Of a DNA stretch of 64,000 nt, positions 1 through 52,800 are shown piece after piece (position 1 is the first letter of the stretch; each line of letters starts with the position of its first letter). The translations under genes and the position numbers were made by a program. The stretch lies in the NCBI RefSeq assembly GCF_055900595.2, contig NZ_CM148325.1. One strand, given 5' to 3'. Under the pieces are notes generated by a model. It saw nothing but the letters and a program-made list of their open reading frames with translations. It ran no database searches and was not told the origin of the DNA.

Positions 1-1203
1 GAATTTAACCGCCAGCTGTCGCTGACGGGGCATTATGCCGGAGTCACTGCCGGGCAGCTGTGGACGCTCAGTCGTGCTATTTCCGGGAATGGTATCACGC
101 AACATGCTGCAGCCGGTGCGCTGGCTCAGGTGGTGGGGAGTGGTGCATTTCGTGGAAACGATATCGGTATGGTGGCGAGAGCTGCCGCACAGATGGAGCG
201 ATCGGTTGGCCAGTCGGTCAGCGATACCATAAATCAGTTTAAGCGGCTGAAGGATGATCCTGTAAATGCCGCGAAGTCTCTGGACAATGAGCTGCATTTT
301 CTTACTGCCACTCAGCTTGAGCAGATACGCGTCCTTGGAGAGCAGGGGCGGTCCAGTGATGCGGCACGGATAGCCATGTCTGCACTGGCAGAGGAAACCG
401 GTCGGCGTACTGCGGATATTGATAATAACCTCAATGCGCTGGGCAGTACGCTGCAAACTTTGTCTGACTGGTGGAAGCAGTTCTGGGATGCGGCCATGAA
501 TATTGGTCGTGAAGATTCGCTGGATGCGCAGATTGCCACTTTGCAGGAGAAAGTGTCGCGGGCGAAAAGACTCCCCTGGACGGCATCATCTTCTCAGGTT
601 GAATACGATCAGCAGCGTCTTAACGATCTTCAGGAGAAAAAACGCCAGAAGGATTTGCAGGATGCAAAAGAGCAGGCAGAGCGGAATTATCAGGAGCAAC
701 AGAAACGCCGTAATGCTGAAAATGCTGCACTGAACCGGATGAATGAAACGGAAGCTGCACGACATCAGCGTGAAATTGCGCGTATTAATGCCATGCAGTA
801 CGCCGATCAGGCTGTCAGGGATGCGGCGATACAACGTGAAAATGAACGTTACGAGAAAGCCCTGGCATCCGGTAAGAAAAAAACACGCGAAACCCGTAAT
901 GATGAGGCCACCCGGTTATTGCTGCAGTACAGTCAGCAACAGGCACAGGTGGAAGGACAGATTGCTGCTGCCAGACAGTCAGCAGGCATTGCCACGGAAA
1001 GGATGACAGAAGCGCATAAACAGCTCCTGGCTCTGCAGCAGCGCATCAGCGACCTGGACGGGAAAAAACTGACGGCAGATGAAAAGAGTGTGCTGGCCCG
1101 TAAAGATGAACTGATTCAGGCACTGACGCTGCTGGATGTAAAACAGCAGGAGCTTCAGAAACAGACGGCACTCAACGAGCTGAAGAAAAAACAATTCAGC
1201 TGA
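1..1203 (+). CDS. phage tail tape measure protein (lambda gpH-like), 5' end outside window; reading frame ends at 1201-1203
   Basis: Frame 1 is open from base 1; translation is coiled-coil and Gln/Ala-rich like lambda H; gene order H-M-L-K-I-J follows. Confidence 0.8.
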   Translation, partial: EFNRQLSLTGHYAGVTAGQLWTLSRAISGNGITQHAAAGALAQVVGSGAFRGNDIGMVARAAAQMERSVGQSVSDTINQFKRLKDDPVNAAKSLDNELHFLTATQLEQIRVLGEQGRSSDAARIAMSALAEETGRRTADIDNNLNALGSTLQTLSDWWKQFWDAAMNIGREDSLDAQIATLQEKVSRAKRLPWTASSSQVEYDQQRLNDLQEKKRQKDLQDAKEQAERNYQEQQKRRNAENAALNRMNETEAARHQREIARINAMQYADQAVRDAAIQRENERYEKALASGKKKTRETRNDEATRLLLQYSQQQAQVEGQIAAARQSAGIATERMTEAHKQLLALQQRISDLDGKKLTADEKSVLARKDELIQALTLLDVKQQELQKQTALNELKKKQFS

Positions 1204-1265
1204 CCAGTCAACTGGCTGAAGAAGAGCGCGCTCAGCGTCAGCAACATGACCTGGATATCGCCACG

Positions 1266-2117
1266 GTGGGTATGGGTGATCAGCAGCGACAGCGATATCA
1301 GGTACAACTGAGTCTTCGCCAGAAATACCAGCAACAGCTGGAGCAGTTGAGGCGGGATAGTGAGCAGAAAGGGACATATAACACGGATGACTACAGAAAG
1401 GCCGAGCAGGCGCTGACGGAGAGCCTGAACCGACAACTGAATGAGAATCGCCGTTACTGGCAACAGCTTGAAGTTGTGCAGGGTAACTGGAAAAACGGAG
1501 TCCTGCGTGCATTTCAGGATTTTACCGTGGATGCAGATAATACGGCAGAAACAGCAGAACAGGTGTTCTCGTCAGCCTTCAGCAACATGGGAAATGGCCT
1601 GGCAACTTTTGTCACTACCGGCAAACTCAATTTCAAATCCTTCACCTCTTCTGTGCTGTCAGATATGGCGAAAATCCTGGCGCAGGCAACCATGATGAAA
1701 TCGATAAAAGGGATTGGCAGTGTACTGGGATTTGATCTCAGCAGCCTTTCCCTGAATGCCAATGGGGGGATTTATCAGTCTGCTGATTTGAGTCGTTACA
1801 GTGGCACGGTGGTTAACCGTCCGACGTTTTTTGCTTTTGCAAAAGGCGCGGGTGTGATGGGGGAAGCGGGACCTGAAGCCATTCTGCCATTGCGTCGTGG
1901 TGCTGACGGTAAGCTGGGGGTTGTGGCGGATATTGGGGGTTCAGGTATGGCGATGTTTTCCCCGCAGTACAACATCGAGATCAATAACGATGGCACGAAC
2001 GGGCAGATAGGTCCGGCTGCCCTGAAGGCGGTTTATGACCTCGGGAAAAAAGCGGCAGCGGACTTTATGCAACAGCAGGCCCGTGATGGTGGTCGGTTAA
2101 GTGGAGCATATCGGTAA
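1266..2117 (+). CDS. tape measure protein C-terminal portion (continuation of gpH in another frame)
   Basis: C-terminus INNDGTNGQIGPAALKAVYD...RDGG matches the lambda H C-terminus; frame is open from ~1110, overlapping the upstream segment, so one gene is split by a frameshift. Confidence 0.8.
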   Translation: MGMGDQQRQRYQVQLSLRQKYQQQLEQLRRDSEQKGTYNTDDYRKAEQALTESLNRQLNENRRYWQQLEVVQGNWKNGVLRAFQDFTVDADNTAETAEQVFSSAFSNMGNGLATFVTTGKLNFKSFTSSVLSDMAKILAQATMMKSIKGIGSVLGFDLSSLSLNANGGIYQSADLSRYSGTVVNRPTFFAFAKGAGVMGEAGPEAILPLRRGADGKLGVVADIGGSGMAMFSPQYNIEINNDGTNGQIGPAALKAVYDLGKKAAADFMQQQARDGGRLSGAYR

Positions 2118-2446
2118 TGGAGACGTTTCACTGGAAAGTGCGCCCGGATATGAATGTGGTATCAGAGCCGAAAGTGGTGACAGTGAAGCTGGGCGATGGT
2201 TATGAACAGCGTCGTGCGGCGGGACTGAATAACCAGTTGTCGACTTACAGCGTGACGATACGTGTTCGTAAATGTGAACACCCATCTTTAAAAGCCTTTC
2301 TGGAACGGCACGGTGGCGTCCGTGCATTTCAGTGGACGCCACCTTATGACTGGAAACCGATCAGGGTGGTTTGTCGTAAATGGTCGGCAAGCGTGGGGGC
2401 GCTGTGGGTAACCATAACGGCAGATTTTGAACAGGTCGTGGCATAG
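2117..2446 (+). CDS. M: phage minor tail protein M
   Basis: 109 aa, METFHWKVRPDMNVVSEP..., same length and sequence pattern as lambda gpM; start overlaps H stop. Confidence 0.9.
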   Translation: METFHWKVRPDMNVVSEPKVVTVKLGDGYEQRRAAGLNNQLSTYSVTIRVRKCEHPSLKAFLERHGGVRAFQWTPPYDWKPIRVVCRKWSASVGALWVTITADFEQVVA

Positions 2447-2455
2447 GAGGCTCTG

Positions 2456-3154
2456 ATGCAGGATATTCCACAGGAAACACATCATGAGACGACACGCCTC
2501 ACTCAGTCAGCCCAGGTGGTGCTCTGGGAAATCGATCTGACAGAGGTCGGTGGTGAACGTTATTTTTTCTGTAATGAGCAGAACGAAAAAGGTGAGCCGG
2601 TTACCTGGCAGGGGCGGCAGTATCAGGCATACCCCATTCAGGGGACGGGATTTGAACTGAACGGCAAGGGCAGTGCTGCCCGTCCGACACTGACGGTTTC
2701 TAACCTGCACGGAATGGTCACCGGGATGGCGGAAGACCTGCAGAGTCTGGTCGGCGGAACGGTGGTCAGGCGTAAGGTTTACGCCCGTTTTCTGGATGCG
2801 GTGAACTTCGTCAACGGAAACAGTGACGCCGATCCGGAGCAGGAGGTGATCAGCCGCTGGCGCATCGAGCAGTGCAGCGAACTGAGCGCGGTCAGTGCCT
2901 CTTTTGTACTGTCCACGCCGACGGAAACGGACGGTGCTGTTTTTCCGGGACGTATTATGCTGGCCAACACCTGCACCTGGACCTATCGCGGCGATGAGTG
3001 CGGTTATAGCGGTCCGGCGGTCGCGGATGAATATGATCAGCCGACGTCCGATATCACGAAGGATAAATGCAGCAAATGCCTGAGCGGCTGTAAGTTCCGC
3101 AATAACGTCGGCAACTTTGGCGGTTTTCTTTCCATTCACAAACTTTCGCAGTAA
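2456..3154 (+). CDS. L: phage minor tail protein L
   Basis: 232 aa, MQDIPQETHHETTRLTQS..., lambda gpL-like with C-terminal Cys cluster. Confidence 0.9.
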   Translation: MQDIPQETHHETTRLTQSAQVVLWEIDLTEVGGERYFFCNEQNEKGEPVTWQGRQYQAYPIQGTGFELNGKGSAARPTLTVSNLHGMVTGMAEDLQSLVGGTVVRRKVYARFLDAVNFVNGNSDADPEQEVISRWRIEQCSELSAVSASFVLSTPTETDGAVFPGRIMLANTCTWTYRGDECGYSGPAVADEYDQPTSDITKDKCSKCLSGCKFRNNVGNFGGFLSIHKLSQ

Positions 3155-3158
3155 TTCC

Positions 3159-3902
3159 ATGACAGAGACAGAATCAGCGATTCTGGCGCACGCCCGGCGA
3201 TGTGCGCCAGCGGAGTCGTGCGGCTTCGTGGTGAGAGCGCCGGAGGGGGAAAGATATTTCCCCTGCGTGAATATCTCCGGTGAGCCGGAGGCGTATTTCC
3301 GGATGTCGCCGGAGGACTGGCTGCAGGCAGAGATGCAGGGTGAGATTGTGGCACTGGTCCACAGTCACCCCGGTGGTCTGCCCTGGCTGAGTGAGGCCGA
3401 CCGGCGGCTGCAGGTGCAGAGTGATTTGCCGTGGTGGCTGGTTTGCCGGGGAGCGATTCACAAGTTCCGCTGTGTGCCACATCTTTCCGGGCGGCGCTTT
3501 GAGCACGGGGTGACGGACTGTTACACGCTGTTCCGGGATGCTTACCATCTGGCGGGGATTGAGATGCCGGATTTTCATCGCGAGGATGACTGGTGGCGTA
3601 ACGGTCAGAATCTCTATCTGGATAATCTGGAGGCCACAGGGCTGTATCAGGTGCCGTTGTCAGCGGCGCAGCCGGGCGATGTGCTGCTGTGCTGTTTTGG
3701 TTCATCGGTGCCGAATCATGCCGCCATTTACTGTGGTGACAGCGAGCTGCTGCACCATATTCCTGAACAACTGAGCAAACGAGAGAGGTACACCGACAAA
3801 TGGCAGCGACGCACACACTCCCTCTGGCGTCACCGGGCATGGCACGCATCTGCCTTTACGGGGATTTACAACGATTTGGCCGCCGCATCGACCTTCGAGT
3901 GA
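3159..3902 (+). CDS. K: phage tail tip assembly protein K (MPN/JAMM plus NlpC/P60 domains)
   Basis: HSHPGG JAMM motif and DCYTLF catalytic Cys region; lambda gpK-like. Lambda K is annotated from the internal Met (here 3303); 3' end overlaps I as in lambda. Confidence 0.85.
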   Translation: MTETESAILAHARRCAPAESCGFVVRAPEGERYFPCVNISGEPEAYFRMSPEDWLQAEMQGEIVALVHSHPGGLPWLSEADRRLQVQSDLPWWLVCRGAIHKFRCVPHLSGRRFEHGVTDCYTLFRDAYHLAGIEMPDFHREDDWWRNGQNLYLDNLEATGLYQVPLSAAQPGDVLLCCFGSSVPNHAAIYCGDSELLHHIPEQLSKRERYTDKWQRRTHSLWRHRAWHASAFTGIYNDLAAASTFE

Positions 3903-4447
3903 AAACGGGGTCCGAAGCCATCCGGGCGCTGGCCATGCAGATCCCGGCGTTTCGTCAGAAACTGAGCGACGGCTGGTACCAGGTACGCATTGCCGGGCGT
4001 GATGCCGGTGAAACCGAATTGTCTGCCCGTCTTAATGAGCCGCTGGCAAATGGTGCCGTGATCCACATCGTGCCGCGTCTGGCGGGAGCTAAAAGTGGCG
4101 GTGTGTTTCAGGTGGTGCTGGGGGCGGCGCTGATTGCGGTGGCATGGTGGAACCCTGTGGGCTGGCTGGGAGCCGCGGCTGTATCGGGTATGTATGCGGC
4201 AGGGGCCAGTATGATCCTGGGCGGAGTGGCGCAGATGCTGGCACCGAAAGCCAGGACGCCCACGGCAGCAAGTACAGATAACGGCAAACAGAACACCTAT
4301 TTCTCCTCACTGGATAACATGGTTGCCCAGGGCAATGTTCTGCCCGTTCTGTACGGTGAAATGCGCGTGGGGTCGCGGGTGGTCTCTCAGGAGATCAGCA
4401 CGGCAGACGAAGGGGATGGTGGTCAGGTTGTGGTGATTGGTCGCTGA
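3800..4447 (+). CDS. I: phage tail assembly protein I
   Basis: MAATHTLPLASPGMARICLYGDLQRFGRRIDLRV... near-identical to the lambda gpI N- and C-termini. Confidence 0.9.
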   Translation: MAATHTLPLASPGMARICLYGDLQRFGRRIDLRVKTGSEAIRALAMQIPAFRQKLSDGWYQVRIAGRDAGETELSARLNEPLANGAVIHIVPRLAGAKSGGVFQVVLGAALIAVAWWNPVGWLGAAAVSGMYAAGASMILGGVAQMLAPKARTPTAASTDNGKQNTYFSSLDNMVAQGNVLPVLYGEMRVGSRVVSQEISTADEGDGGQVVVIGR

Positions 4448-4507: not shown

Positions 4508-7500
4508 ATGGGTAAAGGCAGCAGTAAGGGGCATACTCCGCGCGAAGCGAAGGACAACCTGAAGTCCACGCAGTTGCTGAGTGTGATCGATGCCATCAGC
4601 GAAGGGCCGGTTGAAGGTCCGGTAGATGGATTAAAAAGCGTGCTGCTGAACAGTACGCCAGTGCTGGACATTGAGGGGAATACCAACATCTCCGGCGTCA
4701 CGGTGGTGTTCCGGGCCGGTGAGCAGGAGCAAACACCGCCGGAGGGATTTGAATCCTCCGGCTCCGAGACGGTGCTGGGTACGGAAGTGAAATACGACAC
4801 GCCGATCACCCGGACCATCACGTCGGCAAACATTGACCGACTGCGTTTTACCTTCGGCGTGCAGGCACTGGTGGAAACCACCTCAAAGGGGGACAGGAAT
4901 CCGTCGGAAGTCCGCCTGCTGGTTCAGATACAACGTAACGGTGGCTGGGTGACGGAAAAAGACATCACCATTAAAGGCAAAACCACCTCACAGTATCTGG
5001 CCTCGGTGGTGGTGGGTAACCTGCCGCCGCGCCCGTTCAATATCCGGATGCGCAGGATGACGCCGGACAGCACCACAGACCAACTGCAGAACAAAACGCT
5101 CTGGTCGTCATACACCGAAATCATCGATGTGAAACAGTGCTACCCGAACACGGCACTGGTTGGCGTGCAGGTGGACTCGGAGCAGTTCGGCAGCCAGCAG
5201 GTGAGCCGTAATTATCATCTTCGCGGGCGCATTCTGCAGGTGCCGTCGAACTATAACCCGCAGACGCGGCAATACAGCGGTATCTGGGACGGAACGTTAA
5301 AACCGGCATACAGCAACAACATGGCCTGGTGTCTGTGGGATATGCTGACCCACCCGCGCTACGGCATGGGGAAACGTCTTGGTGCGGCAGATGTGGATAA
5401 ATGGGCGCTGTATGTCATCGGCCAGAATTGCGACCAGTCGGTGCCGGACGGCTTTGGCGGTACGGAGCCGCGCATCACCTGTAACGCTTACCTGACCACA
5501 CAACGTAAGGCGTGGGATGTGCTCAGTGATTTCTGCTCGGCGATGCGCTGTATGCCGGTATGGAGCGGGCAGACGCTGACGTTCGTGCAGGACCGACCGT
5601 CGGATAAGGTGTGGACCTATAACCGCAGTAATGTGGTGATGCCGGATGATGGCGCGCCGTTCCGCTACAGCTTCAGCGCCCTGAAAGACCGCCATAATGC
5701 CGTTGAGGTGAACTGGATTGACCCGGATAACGGCTGGGAGACGGCAACAGAGCTTGTGGAGGACTCGCAGGCCATTGCCCGTTACGGTCGTAACGTCACG
5801 AAGATGGATGCCTTTGGCTGTACCAGCCGGGGGCAGGCACACCGCGCCGGGCTGTGGCTGATTAAAACGGAGCTGCTGGAAACGCAGACGGTGGACTTCA
5901 GCGTGGGTGCCGAAGGGCTTCGCCATGTGCCGGGCGATGTTATTGAAATCTGCGATGATGACTATGCCGGTATCAGCATCGGTGGTCGCGTGCTGGCGGT
6001 GAACAGCCAGACCCGGACGCTGACGCTCGACCGTGAAATCACGCTGCCATCCTCCGGCACCACGCTGATAAGCCTGGTTGACGGTGAGGGTAATCCGGTC
6101 AGCGTGGAGGTCCAGTCCGTCACCGACGGCGTGAAGGTGAAAGTGAGCCGTGTTCCTGACGGCGTTGCTGAATACAGCGTGTGGGGGCTGAAGTTGCCGA
6201 CGTTGCGCCAGCGCCTGTTCCGCTGCGTGAGTATCCGTGAGAACGACGACGGCACGTATGCCATCACTGCCGTGCAGCATGTACCGGAGAAAGAGGCCAT
6301 CGTGGATAACGGGGCGCACTTTGACGGTGACCAGAGCGGCACGGTGAATGGTGTCACGCCGCCAGCAGTGCAGCACCTGACCGCAGAAGTCACTGCAGAC
6401 AGCGGGGAATATCAGGTGCTGGCGCGATGGGACACACCGAAGGTGGTGAAGGGCGTGAGCTTCCTGCTTCGCCTGACCGTGGCAGCGGATGACGGCAGTG
6501 AGCGGCTGGTCAGCACGGCCCGGACGACGGAAACCACTTACCGCTTCACACAACTGGCTCTGGGGAACTACAGGCTGACAGTCCGGGCAGTAAATGCGTG
6601 GGGGCAGCAGGGCGATCCGGCGTCGGTATCGTTCCGGATTGCCGCACCGGCAGCGCCGTCGCGGATTGAGCTGACGCCGGGCTATTTTCAGATAACCGCC
6701 ACGCCGCATCTTGCGGTTTATGATCCGACGGTACAGTTTGAGGTCTGGTTCTCGGAAAAACGGATTGCTGATATCAGGCAGGTTGAAACCAGCGCGCGTT
6801 ATCTTGGTACGGCGCTGTACTGGATAGCCGCCAGTATCAATATCAAACCGGGTCGTGATTATTACTTTTATATCCGCAGTGTGAACACCGTCGGCAAATC
6901 GGCATTCGTGGAGGCTGTTGGTCGGGCGAGCGATGATGCGGAAGGTTACCTGGATTTTTTCAAAGGCCAGATAACCGAATCCCATCTCGGCAAGGAGCTG
7001 CTGGAAAAAGTCGAGCTGACGGAGGATAACGCCAGCAGACTGGAGGAGTTTTCGAAAGAGTGGAAGGACGCCAGTGATAAGTGGAATGCCATGTGGGGCG
7101 TCAAAATTGAGCAGACCAAAGACGGCAAACATTATGTCGCGGGTATTGGCCTCAGTATGGAGGATACAGAGGAAGGCAAACTGAGTCAGTTTCTGGTTGC
7201 CGCCAATCGTATCGCGTTTATTGACCCGGCAAACGGGAATGAAACGCCGATGTTTGTGGCGCAGGGCAACCAGATATTCATGAACGACGTGTTCCTGAAA
7301 CGCCTGACGGCCCCCACCATTACCAGCGGCGGTAATCCTCCGGCATTTTCCCTGACACCGGATGGGCGGCTGACGGCGAAAAATGCCGATATCAGCGGTA
7401 ACGTGAATGCGAACTCCGGGACGCTCAACAACGTCACGATTAACGAGAACTGTCGGGTTCTGGGAAAACTGTCCGCGAACCAGATTGAAGGCGATCTCGT

Positions 7501-7903
7501 TAAAACAGTGGGCAAAGCTTTCCCCCGGGACTCCCGTGCACCGGAGCGGTGGCCATCAGGGACCATTACCGTCAGGGTTTATGACGATCAGCCGTTTGAC
7601 CGGCAGATTGTTATTCCGGCGGTGGCATTCAGCGGCGCTAAACATGAGAGAGAGCATACTGATATTTACTCCTCATGCCGTCTGATAGTGCGGAAAAACG
7701 GTGCTGAAATTTATAACCGTACCGCGCTGGATAATACGCTGATTTACAGTGGCGTTATTGATATGCCTGCCGGTCACGGTCACATGACGCTGGAGTTTTC
7801 GGTGTCAGCATGGCTGGTAAATGACTGGTATCCCACAGCAAGTATCAGCGATTTGCTGGTTGTGGTGATGAAGAAAGCCACCGCAGGCATCAGTATCAGC
7901 TGA
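4508..7903 (+). CDS. J: phage tail tip host-specificity protein J
   Basis: 1131 aa starting [24 protein letters not shown], collinear with lambda gpJ throughout; the ORF track start at 4463 is an upstream extension. Confidence 0.95.
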
Positions 7904-7970: not shown

Positions 7971-8570
7971 ATGCGTAAAGTTTGTGCAGCCATTTTGTCC
8001 GCAGCCATCTGTCTGTCCGTATCCGGTGCGCCTGCATGGGCATCTGAACATCAGTCCACGCTGAGCGCGGGGTATCTTCATGCCTCGACGAACGTTCCCG
8101 GCAGCGATGATCTTAACGGGATTAACATGAAATACCGTTATGAGTTTACGGACACACTGGGGCTGGTGACGTCATTCAGCTATGCAGGAGACAAGAATCG
8201 CCAGCTTACCCGTTACAGCAATACCCGCTGGCATGAAGATTCCGTGCGTAACCGCTGGTTCAGCGTGATGGTGGGGCCGTCTGTGCGCGTGAATGAATGG
8301 TTCAGCGCGTATGCGATGGCGGGTATGGCTTACAGCCGTGTGTCGACTTTTTCCGGGGATTATCTCCGCGTAACTGACAATAAGGGGAAAACGCACGATG
8401 TGCTGACCGGAAGTGATGACGGTCGCCACAGCAACACGTCTCTGGCGTGGGGAGCTGGCGTGCAGTTTAACCCGACCGAATCCGTGGCCATTGATATTGC
8501 TTATGAAGGCTCCGGCAGTGGTGACTGGCGCACTGACGGTTTCATCGTGGGTGTCGGTTATAAATTCTGA
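7971..8570 (+). CDS. lom: outer membrane protein Lom (Ail/Lom family, prophage-encoded)
   Basis: 199 aa with signal peptide [24 protein letters not shown] and beta-barrel pattern ending ...GVGYKF, as in lambda Lom. Confidence 0.9.
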
Positions 8571-8622: not shown

Positions 8623-9330
8623 GTGCACAGAAAACCCCCAGCTAGGCTGGGGGTTCCGGAAAGCTTTCAGCTTTGAGCCAGTTATTAAAACCCCTTTTGA
8701 TTTGTTAAAACACCTTGCGGTCTGGCAACTGCAAGTGTCAAACAAGAAATCAAAAGGGGGTCCCAATGGGGGACGAAAAGAGCTTAGCGCACACCCGCTG
8801 GAACTGTAAATATCACATAGTTTTTGCGCCGAAATACCGAAGACTGGCGTTTTACGGAGAGAAGCGTAGGGCGATAGGCAGTATTTTGAGAAAGCTGTGT
8901 GAGTGGAAAAGCGTACGGATTCTGGAAGCAGAGTGCTGCGCAGATCATATCCATATGCTTGTGGAAATCCCACCCAAAATGAGCGTATCCGGCTTTATGG
9001 GATATCTGAAAGGGAAAAGCAGTCTGATGCTTTACGAGCAGTTTGGGGATTTGAAATTCAAATACAGAAACAGGGAGTTCTGGTGCCGAGGGTACTATGT
9101 CGATACGGTGGGTAAGAACACGGCGAAGATACAGGACTACATAAAGCACCAGCTTGAAGAGGATAAAATGGGGGAGCAGTTATCGATTCCATATCCGGGC
9201 AGCCCGTTTACGGGCCGTAAGTAACGAAGTTGAATGCAAATGTCAGATCGTATGCGCCTGTTAGGGCGCGGCTGGTAACAGAGCCTTACAGGCGCATTTG
9301 AAAAACCTCCGGCTATGCCGGAGGATATTT
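8623..9330 (+). mobile_element. IS200 insertion sequence (IS200/IS605 family); ends approximate
   Basis: Contains a tnpA matching IS200 Y1 transposase; left-end hairpin CCCCCAGC-tagg-CTGGGGG upstream of tnpA; ~0.7 kb, the expected IS200 size. Confidence 0.8.
8766..9224 (+). CDS. tnpA: IS200 transposase TnpA (HUH/Y1)
   Basis: 152 aa MGDEKSLAHTRWNCKYHIVFAPKYRR...HIHMLVEIPPK, the HUH motif and IS200 TnpA signature. Confidence 0.95.
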   Translation: MGDEKSLAHTRWNCKYHIVFAPKYRRLAFYGEKRRAIGSILRKLCEWKSVRILEAECCADHIHMLVEIPPKMSVSGFMGYLKGKSSLMLYEQFGDLKFKYRNREFWCRGYYVDTVGKNTAKIQDYIKHQLEEDKMGEQLSIPYPGSPFTGRK

Positions 9331-9345: not shown

Positions 9346-11751
9346 ATGGCAGCAGTAAAAATCTCAGGTGTGCTGAAAGATGGTGCGGGAAAACCAATAC
9401 AGAACTGCACTATTCAACTGAAGGCAAAGCGTAACAGCACCACGGTACTGGTGAACACGGTGGCTTCTGAAAATCCGGATGAAGCCGGACGTTACAGCAT
9501 GGATGTTGAGTATGGCCAGTACAGCGTCACCCTGCTGGTTGAAGGTTTTCCGCCTTCACATGCCGGGACCATTACCGTCTATGAAGGCTCCAGACCAGGT
9601 ACGCTGAATGATTTTCTCGGTGCCATGACGGAAGATGATGTCATGCCGGAGGCATTGCGTCGTTTTGAGGCAATGGTGGAAGAAGTGGCACGCAACGCCG
9701 AAGCCGCCTCTCAGAGCGCAGCGGCGGCAAAGAAATCCGAAACTGCAGCGGCATCATCAAAGAACGCGGCGAAAACCTCAGAAACGAATGCAGCTAATAG
9801 TGCACAGGCGGCAGCGACCTCAAAGACTGCATCGGCAAACTCCGCGACAGCAGCCAAAAAATCAGAAACCAACGCGAAAAATAGCGAGACAGCCGCAAAG
9901 ACGAGCGAAACCAACGCAAAGTCCAGCCAGACGGCAGCGAAAACCAGCGAAACGAATGCCAAAGCCAGTGAAACTGCGGCAAAAAACAGCCAGGTTGCAG
10001 CAGCCCAAAGCGAGAGCGCGGCAGCCGGTTCTGCGACTTCAGCAGCTGGATCAGCAACTGCTGCGGCTAACAGCCAGAAAGCTGCGAAGACGAGTGAAAC
10101 TAACGCAAAGTCCAGCCAGACGGCAGCGAAGACCAGCGAAACGAATGCCAAAACCAGCGAAACTGCGGCGAAAAACAGTCAGGATGCAGCAGCCCAAAGC
10201 GAGAGTGCTGCAGCTGGTTCTGCAAGCGCGGCGGCTGCTTCTGCCACTGCATCAGCTAACAGTCAAAAAGCAGCAAAAACCAGTGAAACCAACGCAAAGG
10301 CGAGCGAGACTGCGGCGGCGAACTCGGCGCAAGCATCGGCAGCAAGCCAGACAGCAGCTAAAGCAAGTGAAGACGCAGCCAGAGAGTATGCAAGCCAGGC
10401 AGCGGAGCCGTATAAACAAGTTTTGCAGCCGTTGCCCGATGTGTGGATACCGTTTAATGATTCACTGGATATGATTACGGGCTTTTCGCCATCATATAAA
10501 AAAATTGTTATTGGCGACGATGAAATAACAATGCCTGGCGACAAGATTGTAAAGTTTAAACGCGCATCGAAAGCAACTTACATTAATAAATCTGGTGTGC
10601 TGACAGAGGCTGCCATTGACGAGCCACGATTTGAACGTGATGGCCTGCTTATTGAGGGGCAAAGAACTAACCTGCTAATCAATTCAACAAATCCGACTAA
10701 ATGGAACAAGTCGTCAAATATGATCTTAAGTGCATCAGGTGTAGATGATTTCGGATTCCAGTACGCAAAATTTACATTAAAACCAGAAATGGTAGGGCAA
10801 ATTTCAGCGATTAACATAGTAACCGTTTCCGGCAGTAAAGGTTTTGATGTAACAGGCGGAGAAAAGTATGTAACCATATCATGCAGGGTGCAAAGTGGCA
10901 CTCCAAATTTAAGATGCCGATTACGATTTGAAAACTATGATGGTTCTACCTACACATTCTTAGGTGACGCTTACTTAAATACGACAGATTTATCTATTGA
11001 TAAGACGGGTGGTGCCGCTAATCGCATTACTGCAAGGGCTGTTAAAGATGAAGCAAGCAAATGGATCTTTTTTGAGGCGACAATTAAGGCACTTGATACA
11101 GAAAATATGATAGGTGGAATGGTTCAGTATGCCCCGGCAAAAGGAGTGGGCACTGGCGCGGATGATTATATTTATATTGCGACCCCTCAAGTTGAAGGTG
11201 GGGCGTGCGCTTCATCGTTTATTATAACAGGCGCATCCCCTGTAACACGCGCCAGCGATATTGTGACGGTCCCCATTTCTCTAAATTGGTGCAATCCCGC
11301 TATTAGTTCATTAGCAGAAGTTAATACCAATTGGGATGAATCGCCAAACAAAGAAGGTAGCGCACGTATTCTTAATATTTCCACTACGGGAGATACAACT
11401 GAAATTGCAGATGAAAGTTATATGTATTTGGGGTATACATCTTTGGGAGCACGCGCAATCATTACAAATGGTAAAGGCACTAAAATAGAATATAAAAGCG
11501 TTATAGAACGACCAGAGAGAAAAAGCATTATCGGCTTTAGATTCACAGAAAGTCGAGAATTGTGTGTTGTGGTTAACGGTAATATTGGTGCTAAGGTAGT
11601 TTCTCCTTATAAAAAACACAAATATACAGGAGGCTTCATTAATATTGGTGGTCAATCATCATCCGGCAACCGTCACCTATTTGGACACGTTCGAAATCTG
11701 CGTATTTGGCACAAGGCATTGACTGATGCTCAGATGGGGGAGTCAATCTAA
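9346..11751 (+). CDS. stf: side tail fiber protein (lambda Stf-like N-terminus, Ala/Ser/Thr-rich repeat shaft, divergent AT-rich C-terminal domain)
   Basis: N-terminus MAAVKISGVLKDGAGKPIQNCTIQLKA... matches lambda Stf; shaft has repeated KTSETNAK units; C-terminus ends GHVRNLRIWHKALTDAQM, resembling a LamG/concanavalin-like fold. Confidence 0.85.
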   Translation: MAAVKISGVLKDGAGKPIQNCTIQLKAKRNSTTVLVNTVASENPDEAGRYSMDVEYGQYSVTLLVEGFPPSHAGTITVYEGSRPGTLNDFLGAMTEDDVMPEALRRFEAMVEEVARNAEAASQSAAAAKKSETAAASSKNAAKTSETNAANSAQAAATSKTASANSATAAKKSETNAKNSETAAKTSETNAKSSQTAAKTSETNAKASETAAKNSQVAAAQSESAAAGSATSAAGSATAAANSQKAAKTSETNAKSSQTAAKTSETNAKTSETAAKNSQDAAAQSESAAAGSASAAAASATASANSQKAAKTSETNAKASETAAANSAQASAASQTAAKASEDAAREYASQAAEPYKQVLQPLPDVWIPFNDSLDMITGFSPSYKKIVIGDDEITMPGDKIVKFKRASKATYINKSGVLTEAAIDEPRFERDGLLIEGQRTNLLINSTNPTKWNKSSNMILSASGVDDFGFQYAKFTLKPEMVGQISAINIVTVSGSKGFDVTGGEKYVTISCRVQSGTPNLRCRLRFENYDGSTYTFLGDAYLNTTDLSIDKTGGAANRITARAVKDEASKWIFFEATIKALDTENMIGGMVQYAPAKGVGTGADDYIYIATPQVEGGACASSFIITGASPVTRASDIVTVPISLNWCNPAISSLAEVNTNWDESPNKEGSARILNISTTGDTTEIADESYMYLGYTSLGARAIITNGKGTKIEYKSVIERPERKSIIGFRFTESRELCVVVNGNIGAKVVSPYKKHKYTGGFINIGGQSSSGNRHLFGHVRNLRIWHKALTDAQMGESI
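9860..10330 (+). repeat. tandem imperfect coding repeats (~186-bp units) in the tail fiber shaft
   Basis: Protein repeats SQKAAKTSETNAKSSQTAAKTSETNAK(A/T)SETAAKNSQ...AAAQSESAAAGSA occur at least twice, nearly identical. Confidence 0.7.
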
Positions 11752-12032
11752 TGAAAGATTTAACACTCAAATTTGCCGACAGGGCCGACTTTTCGGCTTT
11801 TATGGGAAGTATTGGCTATTATAATGACGAGTCGATGCAGGATGATATTCTGATTGATGTGATAGGTAACGTGTACAAAGAAACCGGAGAGCTGACTGAA
11901 GATGGCGAACCGGTATGTGTTAAGGAAGATGGATATTTTGTAAACGTGCGCATCATTAAGGATACGCAAATATCGTCATTATTCGATGAATACGCGGTTG
12001 CTGTTGAGCATCAACTTCGTGGCTGGATGTGA
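11751..12032 (+). CDS. hypothetical protein (93 aa) immediately downstream of tail fiber; possible fiber assembly/accessory protein
   Basis: ATG overlaps the stf stop (TAATG); acidic 93-aa product; same low-GC block as the fiber C-terminus. Confidence 0.5.
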   Translation: MKDLTLKFADRADFSAFMGSIGYYNDESMQDDILIDVIGNVYKETGELTEDGEPVCVKEDGYFVNVRIIKDTQISSLFDEYAVAVEHQLRGWM

Positions 12033-12041
12033 GGTAGAGAA

Positions 12042-12746
12042 ATGGCTACATCAACAGTAATTCCGGGAGACATCACCACGCTGAAGGGAGATGTTAGTAA
12101 AGCAAAGGAAGATATTTCCTCTATTAACGGAAAAGTATCAACGCTTCAGACTGATATGGCCAGTGCAAAGCAGGATATCAGCACCAGATACACAAAAACT
12201 GAAGTTGATAATAAGCTGAAAAACAAAGTGGAAGTGAACGATCTGGAAAGTGGTCGTTATGGCGGAGATTTTTACCCGCTGACTGGCCGTGAAGCGTTTT
12301 ATTTATGGGGATTGGGCACAACTACAGCGGCGGCAAATCTTTATCTTAATCCTGACCCTGCAATTTCGTCTGTGCTGCGGTCAACATCGTCTATCCGCTA
12401 TAAACATTCAGTAGAGACGATAGATTCAGAGCACGCCGATCTCATTTTCAGGATGCGCCCTGTGTGGTACAGGTCGCAATGCGAAAATGACAGGCGTGAC
12501 TGGGGATTCTATGGATTGATTGCCGAGGAAGTTGGAGAAATTGCCCCTCAGTTTGTTCACTGGCGACCAGCCAACGAAGATGATGCACCGGAAACCATTT
12601 CCAGCAATGGCCTTGTTGCCGAAGGTGTAATGTACGAACGTCTGGTTGTTCCACTGATTCACCATATCCAGAAGCTGACTGAAAGAGTTGATGAACTTGA
12701 GTCAGAATTAAAGTTGTTATCCGTTTCCCGAAGCGATATCGGATAA
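12042..12746 (+). CDS. coiled-coil protein with C-terminal intramolecular-chaperone (peptidase S74-like) domain; tail-fiber-related
   Basis: N-terminal heptad-like coiled coil; C-terminal SSIRYKHSVETID...LIFRMRPVWYR...GFYGLIAEEV resembles the self-cleaving chaperone domain of endosialidase-type fibers. Confidence 0.6.
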   Translation: MATSTVIPGDITTLKGDVSKAKEDISSINGKVSTLQTDMASAKQDISTRYTKTEVDNKLKNKVEVNDLESGRYGGDFYPLTGREAFYLWGLGTTTAAANLYLNPDPAISSVLRSTSSIRYKHSVETIDSEHADLIFRMRPVWYRSQCENDRRDWGFYGLIAEEVGEIAPQFVHWRPANEDDAPETISSNGLVAEGVMYERLVVPLIHHIQKLTERVDELESELKLLSVSRSDIG

Positions 12747-12756
12747 AGGAGGCGTA

Positions 12757-13050
12757 ATGGATATAACACCTTTCCTTCATGCACTTTGTGCTGTGGCTGC
12801 GCAGGTACTGGTTGGTCTTTTTACCGGAAACTGGGCTTACGGGGCGATAGCTGGTTGTACGTTCTTCATTGCGCGTGAACATACCCAGGCAGAATATCGC
12901 TGGATTGAAATGTTCGGGCATGGCAAGCGTATGAATATGCCGTGGTGGGGCGGTTTTGATCCGCGTGCGTGGGATGTGGCAAGCCTGATGGATTTTGCTG
13001 TGCCGGTGGTGGCGTGTCTGCTGGTCTGGCTGTTGGTTAATCGTGGGTGA
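12757..13050 (+). CDS. small membrane protein (97 aa, two predicted TM segments), function unknown
   Basis: Hydrophobic N- and C-terminal segments; RBS AAGGAGG upstream; tightly packed after the preceding ORF. Confidence 0.5.
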   Translation: MDITPFLHALCAVAAQVLVGLFTGNWAYGAIAGCTFFIAREHTQAEYRWIEMFGHGKRMNMPWWGGFDPRAWDVASLMDFAVPVVACLLVWLLVNRG

Positions 13051-13060
13051 AAAAAGGTGA

Positions 13061-13180
13061 GCTGTATATGCAACGGAGGAAGAAACCTCGTTGCGGGAAG
13101 CCTTGAAGAAGTATCGGGTGTTGCTGAACCGTGTTGATACGTCAACTGCACAGGATATTGAATGGCCAGCACTGCCGTAG
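13061..13180 (+). pseudogene. tfa: tail fiber assembly protein (Tfa) 3' remnant
   Basis: Translates to [36 protein letters not shown], the conserved Tfa C-terminus (as in K-12 TfaQ/TfaR), with no upstream coding part. Confidence 0.75.
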
Positions 13181-13277
13181 GGTAAAACATATAAATTCTA
13201 TAATTAGATGTATCTTTCCATTTACGGCAAGGAAGGGGGCTTGGAAGACGTAAGGCATCTCACACCGAGATTATTTT

Positions 13278-13868
13278 TTATATGTCAGGTGTCTGAAGTT
13301 TTGCTTTGGCTCTTAAAATGGTTTGCCGCGAGGTTTTGAATTCCCGGGCAATGGCACTTATACTTACACCTGACTTAATCCGTTCGAATACCACCTGTTT
13401 CTGTTCTTCATTTAACACAGGTGGTCGACCAAAACGTTTCCCTGCGCCCCGGGCTCTTACTATCCCGGAATGAGTGCGTTCAAGTAAAAGGTCTCGTTCA
13501 AATTCAGCGACTGCTGAAATTACTTGCATCATCATTTTTCCTGTTGGACTGGTCAGGTCAATGCCCCCCAATGCTAAGCAATGCACTCTGATACCTGTTT
13601 CGGTCAGTTGTTCCACTGTTTTCCTGATATCCATTGCATTACAACCAAGGCGATCCAGTTTTGTCACAATCAATTGATCACCACATTTCAGGCGAGCAAG
13701 CAACCGGTTAAAACCAGGACGCTCACTGGTTGCTGCTGAGCCGCTAATGTGTTCTTCGATTATTTGCTGAGGTTTGATTTTAAAACCTGCACTTTCGATT
13801 TCCCGGCGTTGATTTTCGGTGGTCTGATCCAGCGTTGATATCCGACAGTAAGCAAAAATTCGAGACAT
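13278..13868 (-). CDS. pin: serine recombinase / DNA invertase (PinQ/PinR-like)
   Basis: 196 aa [29 protein letters not shown]... resolvase/invertase fold with catalytic Ser and C-terminal HTH; position next to tfa and ydfK matches K-12 pinQ. Confidence 0.9.
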
Positions 13869-24574: not shown

Positions 24575-24675
24575 AACGATCCGTTATCAGTGCAGGAAAA
24601 TGCCTGTTAGCGTAAAAGCAAAACACAAATCTATCCATGCAAGCATTCACCGCCGGTTTACTGGCGGTTTTTTTT
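24575..24675 (+). ncRNA. mgrR: candidate MgrR small RNA (PhoP-regulated); start and strand are inferred
   Basis: Intergenic dgcZ-mgtS position matches the K-12 mgrR locus; strong plus-strand terminator (ACCGCCGG-uuua-CUGGCGGU plus U7) at 24649-24675; PhoP-box-like GTTTAA-n5-CATTGA near 24538-24554. Confidence 0.4.
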
Positions 24676-49406: not shown

Positions 49407-49891
49407 GAGTATTGGTATTCTTATTTCCCTTCTTTAGAGCTGGCTTGTTAAATGCCAGCTTGCAGATTCATCGTTCCATCACCAGTACTATATTCAAGGG
49501 AAAATTGCTATTTTTCTTAAAGCATTAAGCATAACCCTTATTTTATAGCGAATATTCCTAAAGGCATTAATGGATGAAAAAGGGTTTTAATAAACTTCTG
49601 TTTTTAGCAATTAGTGCTATTCTTTGTTAAATATGATGATGATAATCTTCTTATTGAAAGAAACAGTTTTCTTATTAAGCAACAATAACTCATGGTTCAT
49701 TTTTAAATAAAATAAGAACTATGCAATTTTTAATCTATCGATTCGAAAGTATTAGCAAATTAGCCAAATTGACACCTTCCCACCTCCAACCAACACTCAA
49801 TACAGACCTCTGACAACTTAATAAGTTTCATTTTTAACGTCTGATGACTCATCTCTTTCGTGGCTGTATTGTTTGTATATGGAGCGTTTAT

Positions 49892-52800
49892 ATGAATAGA
49901 ATCTATCGCGTGATATGGAATTGCACCCTACAGGTATTTCAGGCCTGCTCGGAATTAACTCGCAGGGTAGGTAAAACATCAACGGTTAATTTGCGTAAAT
50001 CCTCTGGATTGACAACGAAATTCAGTAGATTGACGCTGGGTGTTTTGCTGGCACTAAGCGGTTCAGCGTCTGGTGCGAGTCTGGAAGTTGATAATGGTCA
50101 GATTACCAATATTAATACTGATGTTGCTTACGATGCCTACCTGGTTGGGTGGTATGGCACTGGAGTGCTTAATATTTTGGCTGGCGGTAATGCCTCCTTA
50201 ACCACTATTACTACCAGCGTCATTGGTGGTAATGAGGACTCAGAGGGCACCGTTAACGTTTTGGGTGGCACCTGGCGATTGTATGATAGCGGAAATAATG
50301 CAAGGCCTTTAAATGTGGGTCAATCCGGAACGGGGACGCTGAATATTAAACAGAAGGGTCACGTTGACGGAGGATATTTAAGGATAGGTTCTTCGACAGG
50401 AGGCGTCGGGACGGTCAATGTTGAAGGAGAGGACTCGGTTCTGACGACCGAATTATTCGAAATAGGGAGTTACGGTACAGGCTCATTAAATATTACGGAT
50501 AAGGGTTACGTCACGAGTTCAATAGTCGCCATTGTAGGATATCAGGCGAACAGTAATGGTAAGGTTGTCGTTGAAAAGGGTGGCGAGTGGCTAATAAAAA
50601 ATAATGATTCCTCAATTGAATTTCAAATTGGTAATCAAGGGACGGGCGAAGCAACTATTCGCGATGGGGGGCTAATTACGGCTGAAAATACGATTATCGG
50701 TGGCAACCTCACCGGTATCGGAACCCTGAATGTGCAGGATCAAGACTCTGTCATCACGGTACGCAGACTCTATAATGGATATTTCGGTAATGGCACAGTC
50801 AATATTTCCAATAATGGACTGATTAATAATAAAGAATATTCATTGGTGGGCGTTCAGGACGGGTCCCACGGTGTCGTCAACGTGACCGATAAAGGGCATT
50901 GGAATTTCCTCGGAACGGGCGAAGCTTTCCGCTATATCTATATCGGTGATGCTGGCGACGGTGAACTTAATGTCTCGAGTGAAGGCAAAGTAGATTCGGG
51001 AATTATCACTGCGGGGATGAAAGAAACAGGCACAGGCAACATTACTGTTAAGGATAAGAACTCCGTTATCACTAATCTCGGAACTAATCTTGGTTATGAC
51101 GGCCACGGCGAAATGAATATCAGTAATGAGGGGGTTGTTGTCAGCAACGGAGGAAGCTCACTCGGTTATGGAGAAACCGGCGTCGGGAAGGTTAGCATCA
51201 CCACGGGGGGGATGTGGGAGGTCAATAAGAATGTCTATACCACTATTGGTGTTGCGGGCGTCGGAAACCTCAATATCAGCGATGGCGGTAAGTTCGTATC
51301 GCAAAATATTACTTTTTTGGGCGATAAAGCAAGCGGTATCGGCACACTGAACCTGATGGATGCGACATCATCGTTCGATACTGTAGGTATCAATATCGGT
51401 AATTTTGGTAGCGGCATCGTAAATGTCAGTAATGGTGCCACCCTTAATTCAACGGGCTATGGATTTATCGGAGGAAATGCCTCCGGTAAGGGGATAGTTA
51501 ATATTTCAACGGATAGTCTCTGGAATTTAAAAACGTCATCTACTAACGCCCAATTGCTACAGGTCGGTGTATTAGGCACGGGTGAACTGAATATTACCAC
51601 CGGAGGTATAGTTAAAGCGCGTGATACACAGATAGCTCTCAATGACAAAAGTAAGGGCGACGTGCGGGTGGATGGGCAGAACTCTCTTCTTGAAACATTC
51701 AATATGAACGTAGGGACGACTGGCACAGGTACGTTAACCCTGACGAATAACGGCACGCTGAATGTCGAAGGTGGAGAAGTTTACTTAGGTGTTTTTGAGC
51801 CTGCTGTAGGAACGCTAAACATTGGTGCTGCCCACGGTGAGGCTGCGGCAGATGCCGGGTTTATCACCAATGCGACGAAGGTGGAGTTCGGTCTTGGCGA
51901 AGGCGTTTTTGTCTTTAATCACACCAATAACAGCGATGCCGGTTACCAGGTCGACATGCTGATTACAGGTGACGATAAAGACGGAAGAGTGATGCATGAT
52001 GCAGGCCATACTGTGTTCAATGCAGGGAATACTTATAGCGGTAAAACGCTGGTCAATGACGGCCTCCTGACTATTGCGTCACATACGGCAGATGGGGTAA
52101 CAGGCATGGGTTCGAGTGAAGTAACCATTGCAAGCCCCGGTACGCTCGACATTCTCGCATCAACGAACAGCGCAGGAGATTACACGCTGACCAATGCGCT
52201 CAAAGGCGATGGCTTGATGCGAGTGCAGCTGTCATCCTCCGACAAAATGTTTGGCTTTACCCATGCAACAGGAACTGAATTCGCCGGTGTTGCCCAACTG
52301 AAAGACAGTACCTTCACACTGGAACGCGACAACACCGCTGCGCTTACTCACGCGATGCTTCAGTCTGACAGTGAAAATACCACATCGGTAAAAGTGGGAG
52401 AGCAATCCATTGGTGGACTAGCCATGAATGGCGGTACGCTCACTTTCGATACGGATATACCTGCTGCGACGCTTGCGGAGGGATATATCAGCGTCGATAC
52501 ACTGGTTGTCGGCGCGGGTGACTACACCTGGAAAGGCCGTAACTATCAGGTAAACGGGACGGGCGACGTGCTTATCGACGTGCCTAAACCGTGGAATGAT
52601 CCCATGGCGAATAACCCTCTGACTACGCTCAATTTGCTGGAACACGATGATAGCCATGTCGGCGTTCAACTGGTGAAGGCGCAAACGGTTATTGGGTCGG
52701 GTGGCTCATTAACGTTACGTGATTTACAGGGTGACGAGGTGGAAGCGGACAAAACGTTACACATTGCACAAAACGGAACAGTGGTCGCCGAGGGTGATTA

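Follow-up and report, generated by a model that had tools for sequence, protein, structure and literature searches.

The window analysed here, 64,000 nt of E. coli DNA on contig NZ_CM148325.1 in assembly GCF_055900595.2, opens inside a prophage tail tape measure gene that is split between two reading frames. Such a split may reflect a genuine mutation that disables the tail, a homopolymer error in the assembly, a natural two-gene arrangement, or a site at which slippage restores the full-length protein. The question is which of these accounts for the break, and what it would mean for the prophage.

Reading frames and break site

The first base of the window corresponds to nucleotide 949 of a large plus-strand gene. 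Frame 1 contains no stop from base 1 to the TGA at 1201-1203, where the 3' end reads ...ALNELKKKQFS. Frame 3 carries stops at 1080, 1101, and 1107 and is open from 1110 to 2117, reading ...TIQLTSQLAEEERAQRQQ... and ...TIQLTSQLAEEERAQ... up to a TAA at 2115-2117 that overlaps the start of the next gene. Frame 3 is reached from frame 1 by a -1 shift, as if one base had been lost, and the AAAAAA run at 1186-1191 is the sole A6 run within the overlap of the two frames. A reading made earlier from the sequence alone (the sequence-only reading) had located the frame 1 stop, the opening of frame 3 from about 1110, and the break at this run, and all three positions hold. Adding one A yields ...LNELKKKTIQLTSQLAEEE..., which matches the sequence of intact homologues, and the junction of the two pieces falls between residues 713 and 714 of the intact protein. 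The parts of the gene present in the window are as follows.

1..1203, plus strand: 5' part of the tape measure gene, frame 1, with Pfam TMP_2 and TMP_4; called as a 716-aa gene in the near-identical loci L006-L015
877..883, plus strand: second A7 run of the same gene, intact in the window, used for comparison of homopolymer mutability
1186..1191, plus strand: A6 homopolymer and frameshift site; A7 in intact homologues
1191..2117, plus strand: 3' part of the tape measure gene, frame 3 (-1 relative to the 5' part), corresponding to intact residues 714-1021, with Tape_meas_lam_C

The complete truncated product has 716 aa, and the out-of-frame residues QFS precede the premature TGA. The 3' piece spans up to 308 aa. 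Its first in-frame start is the GTG at 1266, from which gene finders call a 283-aa ORF; no start codon precedes this GTG, and no obvious ribosome-binding site was seen on inspection by eye. Even if produced, the 3' piece would not be joined to the N-terminal piece.

Gene identity and genomic context

The gene belongs to the gpH-type tape measure family, and the one family feature that it lacks is a single continuous ORF. Its N-terminal piece matches the Pfam families TMP_2 (8.2e-34) and TMP_4 (3.1e-17), its C-terminal piece matches Tape_meas_lam_C (7.9e-23), and the intact homologue carries all three domains in that order. The intact protein aligns to lambda gpH with 26% identity over 797 columns (E 3e-51), together with an N-terminal match, and the C-terminal stretch NGQIGPAALKAVYD..., located downstream of the break, also aligns to lambda gpH. 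Both segments are collinear with gpH, as the sequence-only reading had proposed, and with one intact 1021-aa homologue.

Gene order supports the same assignment. The gene lies between the G/T chaperone genes, which were read in the near-identical loci L006 and L014, and the M-L-K-I-J series. The genes that follow it in the window are all full length.

2117-2446, plus strand: tail gene M
2456-3154, plus strand: tail gene L
3159-3902, plus strand: tail gene K
3800-4447, plus strand: tail gene I
4508-7903, plus strand: tail gene J
7971-8570, plus strand: lom

The sizes of M, L, K, I, J, and lom are those annotated in strain THO-008. The prophage as a whole is mEp460/lambda-like and is inserted in ydfJ (the Qin site). 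Relatives of the mEp460 type share the flanking order G, T, H, M, L, K, I, J, lom with the window-type locus. In these relatives the intact protein (WP_001587081.1 type, 1021 aa) is encoded by one ORF, and the window CDS with one A added corresponds to its residues 317-1021. The window differs in having A6 for A7, which splits the ORF into a 716-aa piece and a piece of at most 308 aa.

Several other features of the window were recorded. An IS200 copy occupies 8626-9327, after the lom terminator and ahead of the side tail fibre gene, and is absent from this place in THO-008 and EC42405; its ORF at 8766-9224 matches Pfam Y1_Tnp (7.9e-37). The tail-fibre region at 9346-13868 comprises an 801-aa fibre gene with a phage_tail_N domain, a 234-aa protein with a Peptidase_S74 domain, and a minus-strand pin-type invertase (13278-13868), and its counterpart in THO-008 is annotated as partly degenerate. 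At position 24667, in the mgtT region, the window has T8 and EC42405 has T9; mgtT is annotated as frameshifted in EC42405, and the window agrees with THO-008, where it is annotated as intact. An ECSE_1600-type autotransporter of 1822 aa (49844-55312) is intact in the window and has an internal stop in EC42405. The exact window autotransporter protein was found on only 2 public contigs, and the host lineage is therefore rarely sampled.

The intact gene in relatives

Within the gene, alignments of the window with THO-008 and EC42405 contain a single gap, with GAAG-AAAAAAC in the window and GAAGAAAAAAAC in the relatives. Run length counted directly is 7 in five related loci (L001, L002, L004, L005, and L026) and 6 in the window. 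Insertion of one A makes the protein identical to the THO-008 tape measure across the portion present in the window. An A7 run within a single 3066-nt ORF of 1021 aa occurs in E. coli F9792, EC42405, THO-008, and S88 and in phage mEp460_ev081, and the intact gene is annotated in these relatives as a phage tail tape measure protein.

The broader survey gives the same picture. Among complete E. coli genomes, 1807 records contain the 81/82-nt segment around the run; the A7 82-mer is exact in 1214 of those records, and the A6 version is exact in one. That record is strain 204446, for which the RefSeq annotation reads 'frameshifted'. Pattern scans of IMG/VR returned no A6 match and three A7 matches, too few to inform. 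The sequence-only reading had allowed that homologues might show a genuine two-gene arrangement here. Given 1214 exact A7 records against one A6 record, homologues do not have such an arrangement, and all functional-phage relatives examined have one ORF. A two-gene arrangement among homologues was discarded on these grounds. S88 and APEC O1 were also considered as A6 carriers, on account of a match given as 100% over an equal span, and rejected, as S88 has A7 and reaches the same span through a T8/T7 offset.

Deletion or sequencing error

A single-base length difference within a homopolymer is the kind of change that sequencing and assembly can produce, and the sequence-only reading had attached this caveat to its claim. 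Public assemblies were used as a stand-in for resequencing through exact-protein look-ups. For the exact 716-aa truncated product, the assembly collection gave 85 index blocks and 67 contigs, which come from NCBI, ENA, and Logan. The exact 283-aa downstream ORF has 179 such blocks, compared with 2363 blocks and at least 1000 contigs for the intact protein on this haplotype. These contig and block counts are not counts of independent isolates, since the same isolate may recur as a submitted and as a Logan assembly. Ten loci were fetched, and all ten have A6 at the same place and an identical 63-nt gap between the two called genes. One of them (L014) matches the window without a difference across 4554 nt (100% identity), and another (L006) is 99.975% identical, with 2 of 8000 positions differing. 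Two further loci (L011 and L012) stand on contigs with SPAdes-style names.

The window also appears clean elsewhere. Over about 51 kb aligned with relatives, no other frame-breaking indel is present; the remaining gaps are intergenic or compensating, apart from one at which it is the relative that is frameshifted. Additional frameshifts in K and I of the A6 loci were followed up and set aside as gene-caller differences, with K and I broken only in long-read assemblies; in A6 loci free of other frameshifts, K and I are intact.

The alternative, that the run is a homopolymer sequencing or assembly error and that the true genome carries A7 and an intact gene, draws on more than the nature of the change. 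The same A6 is seen in 204446, L009, and L010, which are long-read assemblies rich in frameshifts, and the differences between one A6 locus (L013) and S88 amount to a single SNP and two homopolymer lengths. In the error-rich long-read assemblies L003, L009, and L010, which have many additional indels, the A6 may indeed be technical. For the window, an error is nonetheless unlikely. Its allele recurs on contigs from three sources, including SPAdes-style and Logan run assemblies and DNA identical to the window, and its sequence is unlike that of L009 and L010, which show 13-14 gaps in 7.4 kb. The caveat is thereby largely answered, and the deletion is very probably real and inherited. The locus has the features of a pseudogene, namely a one-nucleotide length change relative to intact orthologues with a premature stop, and an allele repeated in independent assemblies. 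More generally, exact-protein look-ups across public assemblies can serve as a substitute for resequencing when a homopolymer frameshift is being judged.

Probable consequence for the prophage

What is observed is the deletion itself, which intact relatives lack and independent assemblies carry. The proposed mechanism is a heritable 1-bp deletion by strand slippage, which shortened A7 to A6 in the tape measure gene of this mEp460/lambda-like prophage. Translation would then end three codons past the run and give a 716-aa N-terminal fragment without the last 308 residues (714-1021). Among the lost parts would be Tape_meas_lam_C and the conserved C-terminal helix. Structural work on lambda shows that gpH residues 818-842 form this helix as a coiled coil of three chains, which the gpI trimer holds within the lumen of the tail tip, and that the tail tube polymerises around a gpH oligomer that sets tail length (PMC10721106). 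The alignment of gpH with the intact homologue places the helix in the portion downstream of the break. A tape measure must be one continuous chain from the tip to the end of the tube, and normal tails should therefore not form. By this reasoning the prophage should be unable to build working tails and would be tail-defective. We regard the whole explanation, a genuine heritable A7 to A6 deletion that truncates the tape measure and renders the prophage tail-defective, as likely.

Because the remainder of the tail module has stayed intact, the defect would be recent or, in principle, leaky. For annotation, the two ORFs are best treated as parts of a single tape measure pseudogene with a frameshift, and the prophage as probably incapable of producing infectious particles, even though it may still kill the cell on induction and may still donate genes by recombination. 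Beyond annotation, the importance of the lesion is small.

Origins and mutability of the A tract

Across the final 2 kb of the gene, seven window-type A6 loci are identical to the window, and relative to THO-008 they have two marker SNPs in common. Among themselves they differ only by clustered patches in K/I and J. This pattern fits one mutation inherited in a prophage family with later exchange of patches, and recurrence of A6 on the common haplotype could also be at play.

A further A6 locus, L013 (GCA_903975405.1), belongs to another background. Over 9.6 kb, it differs from the S88/APEC O1 prophage only by A6/A7, T8/T7, and one SNP, with the homopolymer differences at positions 647 and 5920. 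The comparison indicates either that the frameshift arose there independently or that the sequencing method tends to miscount homopolymers. If the A6 on this S88-type prophage is taken as read, the allele would therefore have arisen at least twice. Other length variants were also found. On the same protein haplotype, one contig has A8 at the 1186 site. Public contigs with A6 number 67 for the 1186 site and 4 for the other A7 run (877-883). Two further runs of the gene, both A6 (gene positions 1585 and 2011), were tested as well, and length variants of these were absent from public contigs. Strand slippage at the longest homopolymers of the gene, with one allele amplified by descent, would give such a pattern.

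Possible reversible switching or leaky rescue

The same variation could be read as phase variation, with the A7/A6 tract acting as a reversible switch for tail production. A6, A7, and A8 alleles do exist on one protein haplotype, and A6 seems to have arisen at least twice, in window-type and S88-type prophages. The tract is short for a contingency locus, however, and the off allele is found in just 1 of 1807 complete-genome records. Moreover, the marker SNPs common to the window-type A6 loci are explained equally well by a single inherited event, and no benefit to host or phage is evident. Such a switch is very improbable.

A different alternative accepts the deletion and supposes that the break is leaky. 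If tRNA-Lys slipped back by one nucleotide on AAA AAA, or if RNA polymerase inserted an additional A, there might be enough full-length protein for some infectious particles. A -1 shift on the run would yield ...KKKTIQL..., the same as in the intact protein. Furthermore, every short-read A6 locus has the other tail genes of the module intact, and prophages distinguished by patches in K, I, and J continue to carry the allele. The local signals argue against efficient rescue. The zero-frame context is G_AAA_AAA_C, with no X_XXY_YYZ heptamer and only an A_AA.A tetramer. In E. coli, tetramer motifs without a stimulator gave a mean of 0.147% frameshifting against a background of 0.112%, and A_AA.A was the weakest of six tetramers responsive to a pseudoknot (PMC4066793); a site of this type would thus operate near background (about 0.15% vs 0.11%). 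No stimulatory RNA structure was found in the 70 nt downstream, whose minimum free energy of -17.7 kcal/mol (z -0.27) is equalled or bettered by 71 of 200 shuffled sequences. The two-ORF state is also unconserved, as the counts of exact A7 and A6 records indicate. None of the three marks of programmed -1 frameshifting (heptamer, stimulatory structure, conserved two-frame arrangement) is therefore present.

Transcriptional slippage fares no better. Selection against slippage-prone A/T runs is evident at about 9 nt in many genomes (PMC1088944), and we take such selection as the mark of efficient transcriptional slippage. The run at the break has 6 nt, too short by this threshold of about 9 or more. 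Surplus truncated protein could also disturb assembly. Since the signals of efficient recoding are missing, any rescue by slippage should be at background level, and a leaky break that yields infectious particles is quite improbable. A combined proposal holds that the A7 tract is a recurrent, reversible hot spot that toggles between tail-proficient and tail-defective states, or that background -1 slippage keeps the A6 form weakly infectious. Background slippage, if true, would explain the intact rest of the tail module; we nevertheless give this proposal very little credence.

Comparison with known systems

Lambda gpH (853 aa) is a collinear homologue of the gene and has the C-terminal NDGTNGQIGPAALKAVYD motif and Tape_meas_lam_C in common with it. 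The intact homologue is 168 residues longer than gpH, DNA similarity to lambda is limited to about 61 nt, and the window copy is broken, with the 716-aa product lacking the C-terminal segment NDGTNGQIGPAALKAVYD... conserved with gpH. The nearest counterpart of the lesion itself is the pseudogene CXW77_RS25210 of E. coli 204446, which shares the A6 at this position and carries a frameshift annotation. The 204446 prophage is 96.8% identical to the window. Its neighbouring genes T and K are also annotated as frameshifted, and for this reason its lesion may be technical.

The closest textbook parallel is the stf gene of lambda PaPa, in which a single-base frameshift likewise splits a lambdoid tail gene. 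Hendrix and Duda reportedly described in 1992 that this change gives two ORFs and leaves laboratory lambda without side tail fibres. The consequences differ: plaques can form without stf, whereas tails cannot be assembled without the tape measure. The stf disruption of laboratory lambda is also mentioned in the structural study of its tail (PMC10721106).

Programmed -1 shifts on slippery runs offer another comparison. Lambda G/GT, encoded just upstream of H among the tail-assembly genes, and dnaX (A_AAA_AAG) both involve a -1 shift on a slippery run. The break in the window is not to be mistaken for the programmed G/GT shift that neighbours tape measure genes on their upstream side. Those sites are conserved and canonical, and that of dnaX is stimulated; the window site is neither conserved nor canonical and has no stimulator.

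A literature search for tape measure frameshifts in defective prophages of E. coli found nothing specific. The window locus is an ordinary case of prophage pseudogenisation at a mutable homopolymer, of the kind that RefSeq flags routinely. In phage vB_EcoS-606R10 (ON470578.1, L025, 542-3618), a homologous tape measure gene is split elsewhere, near residue 328.
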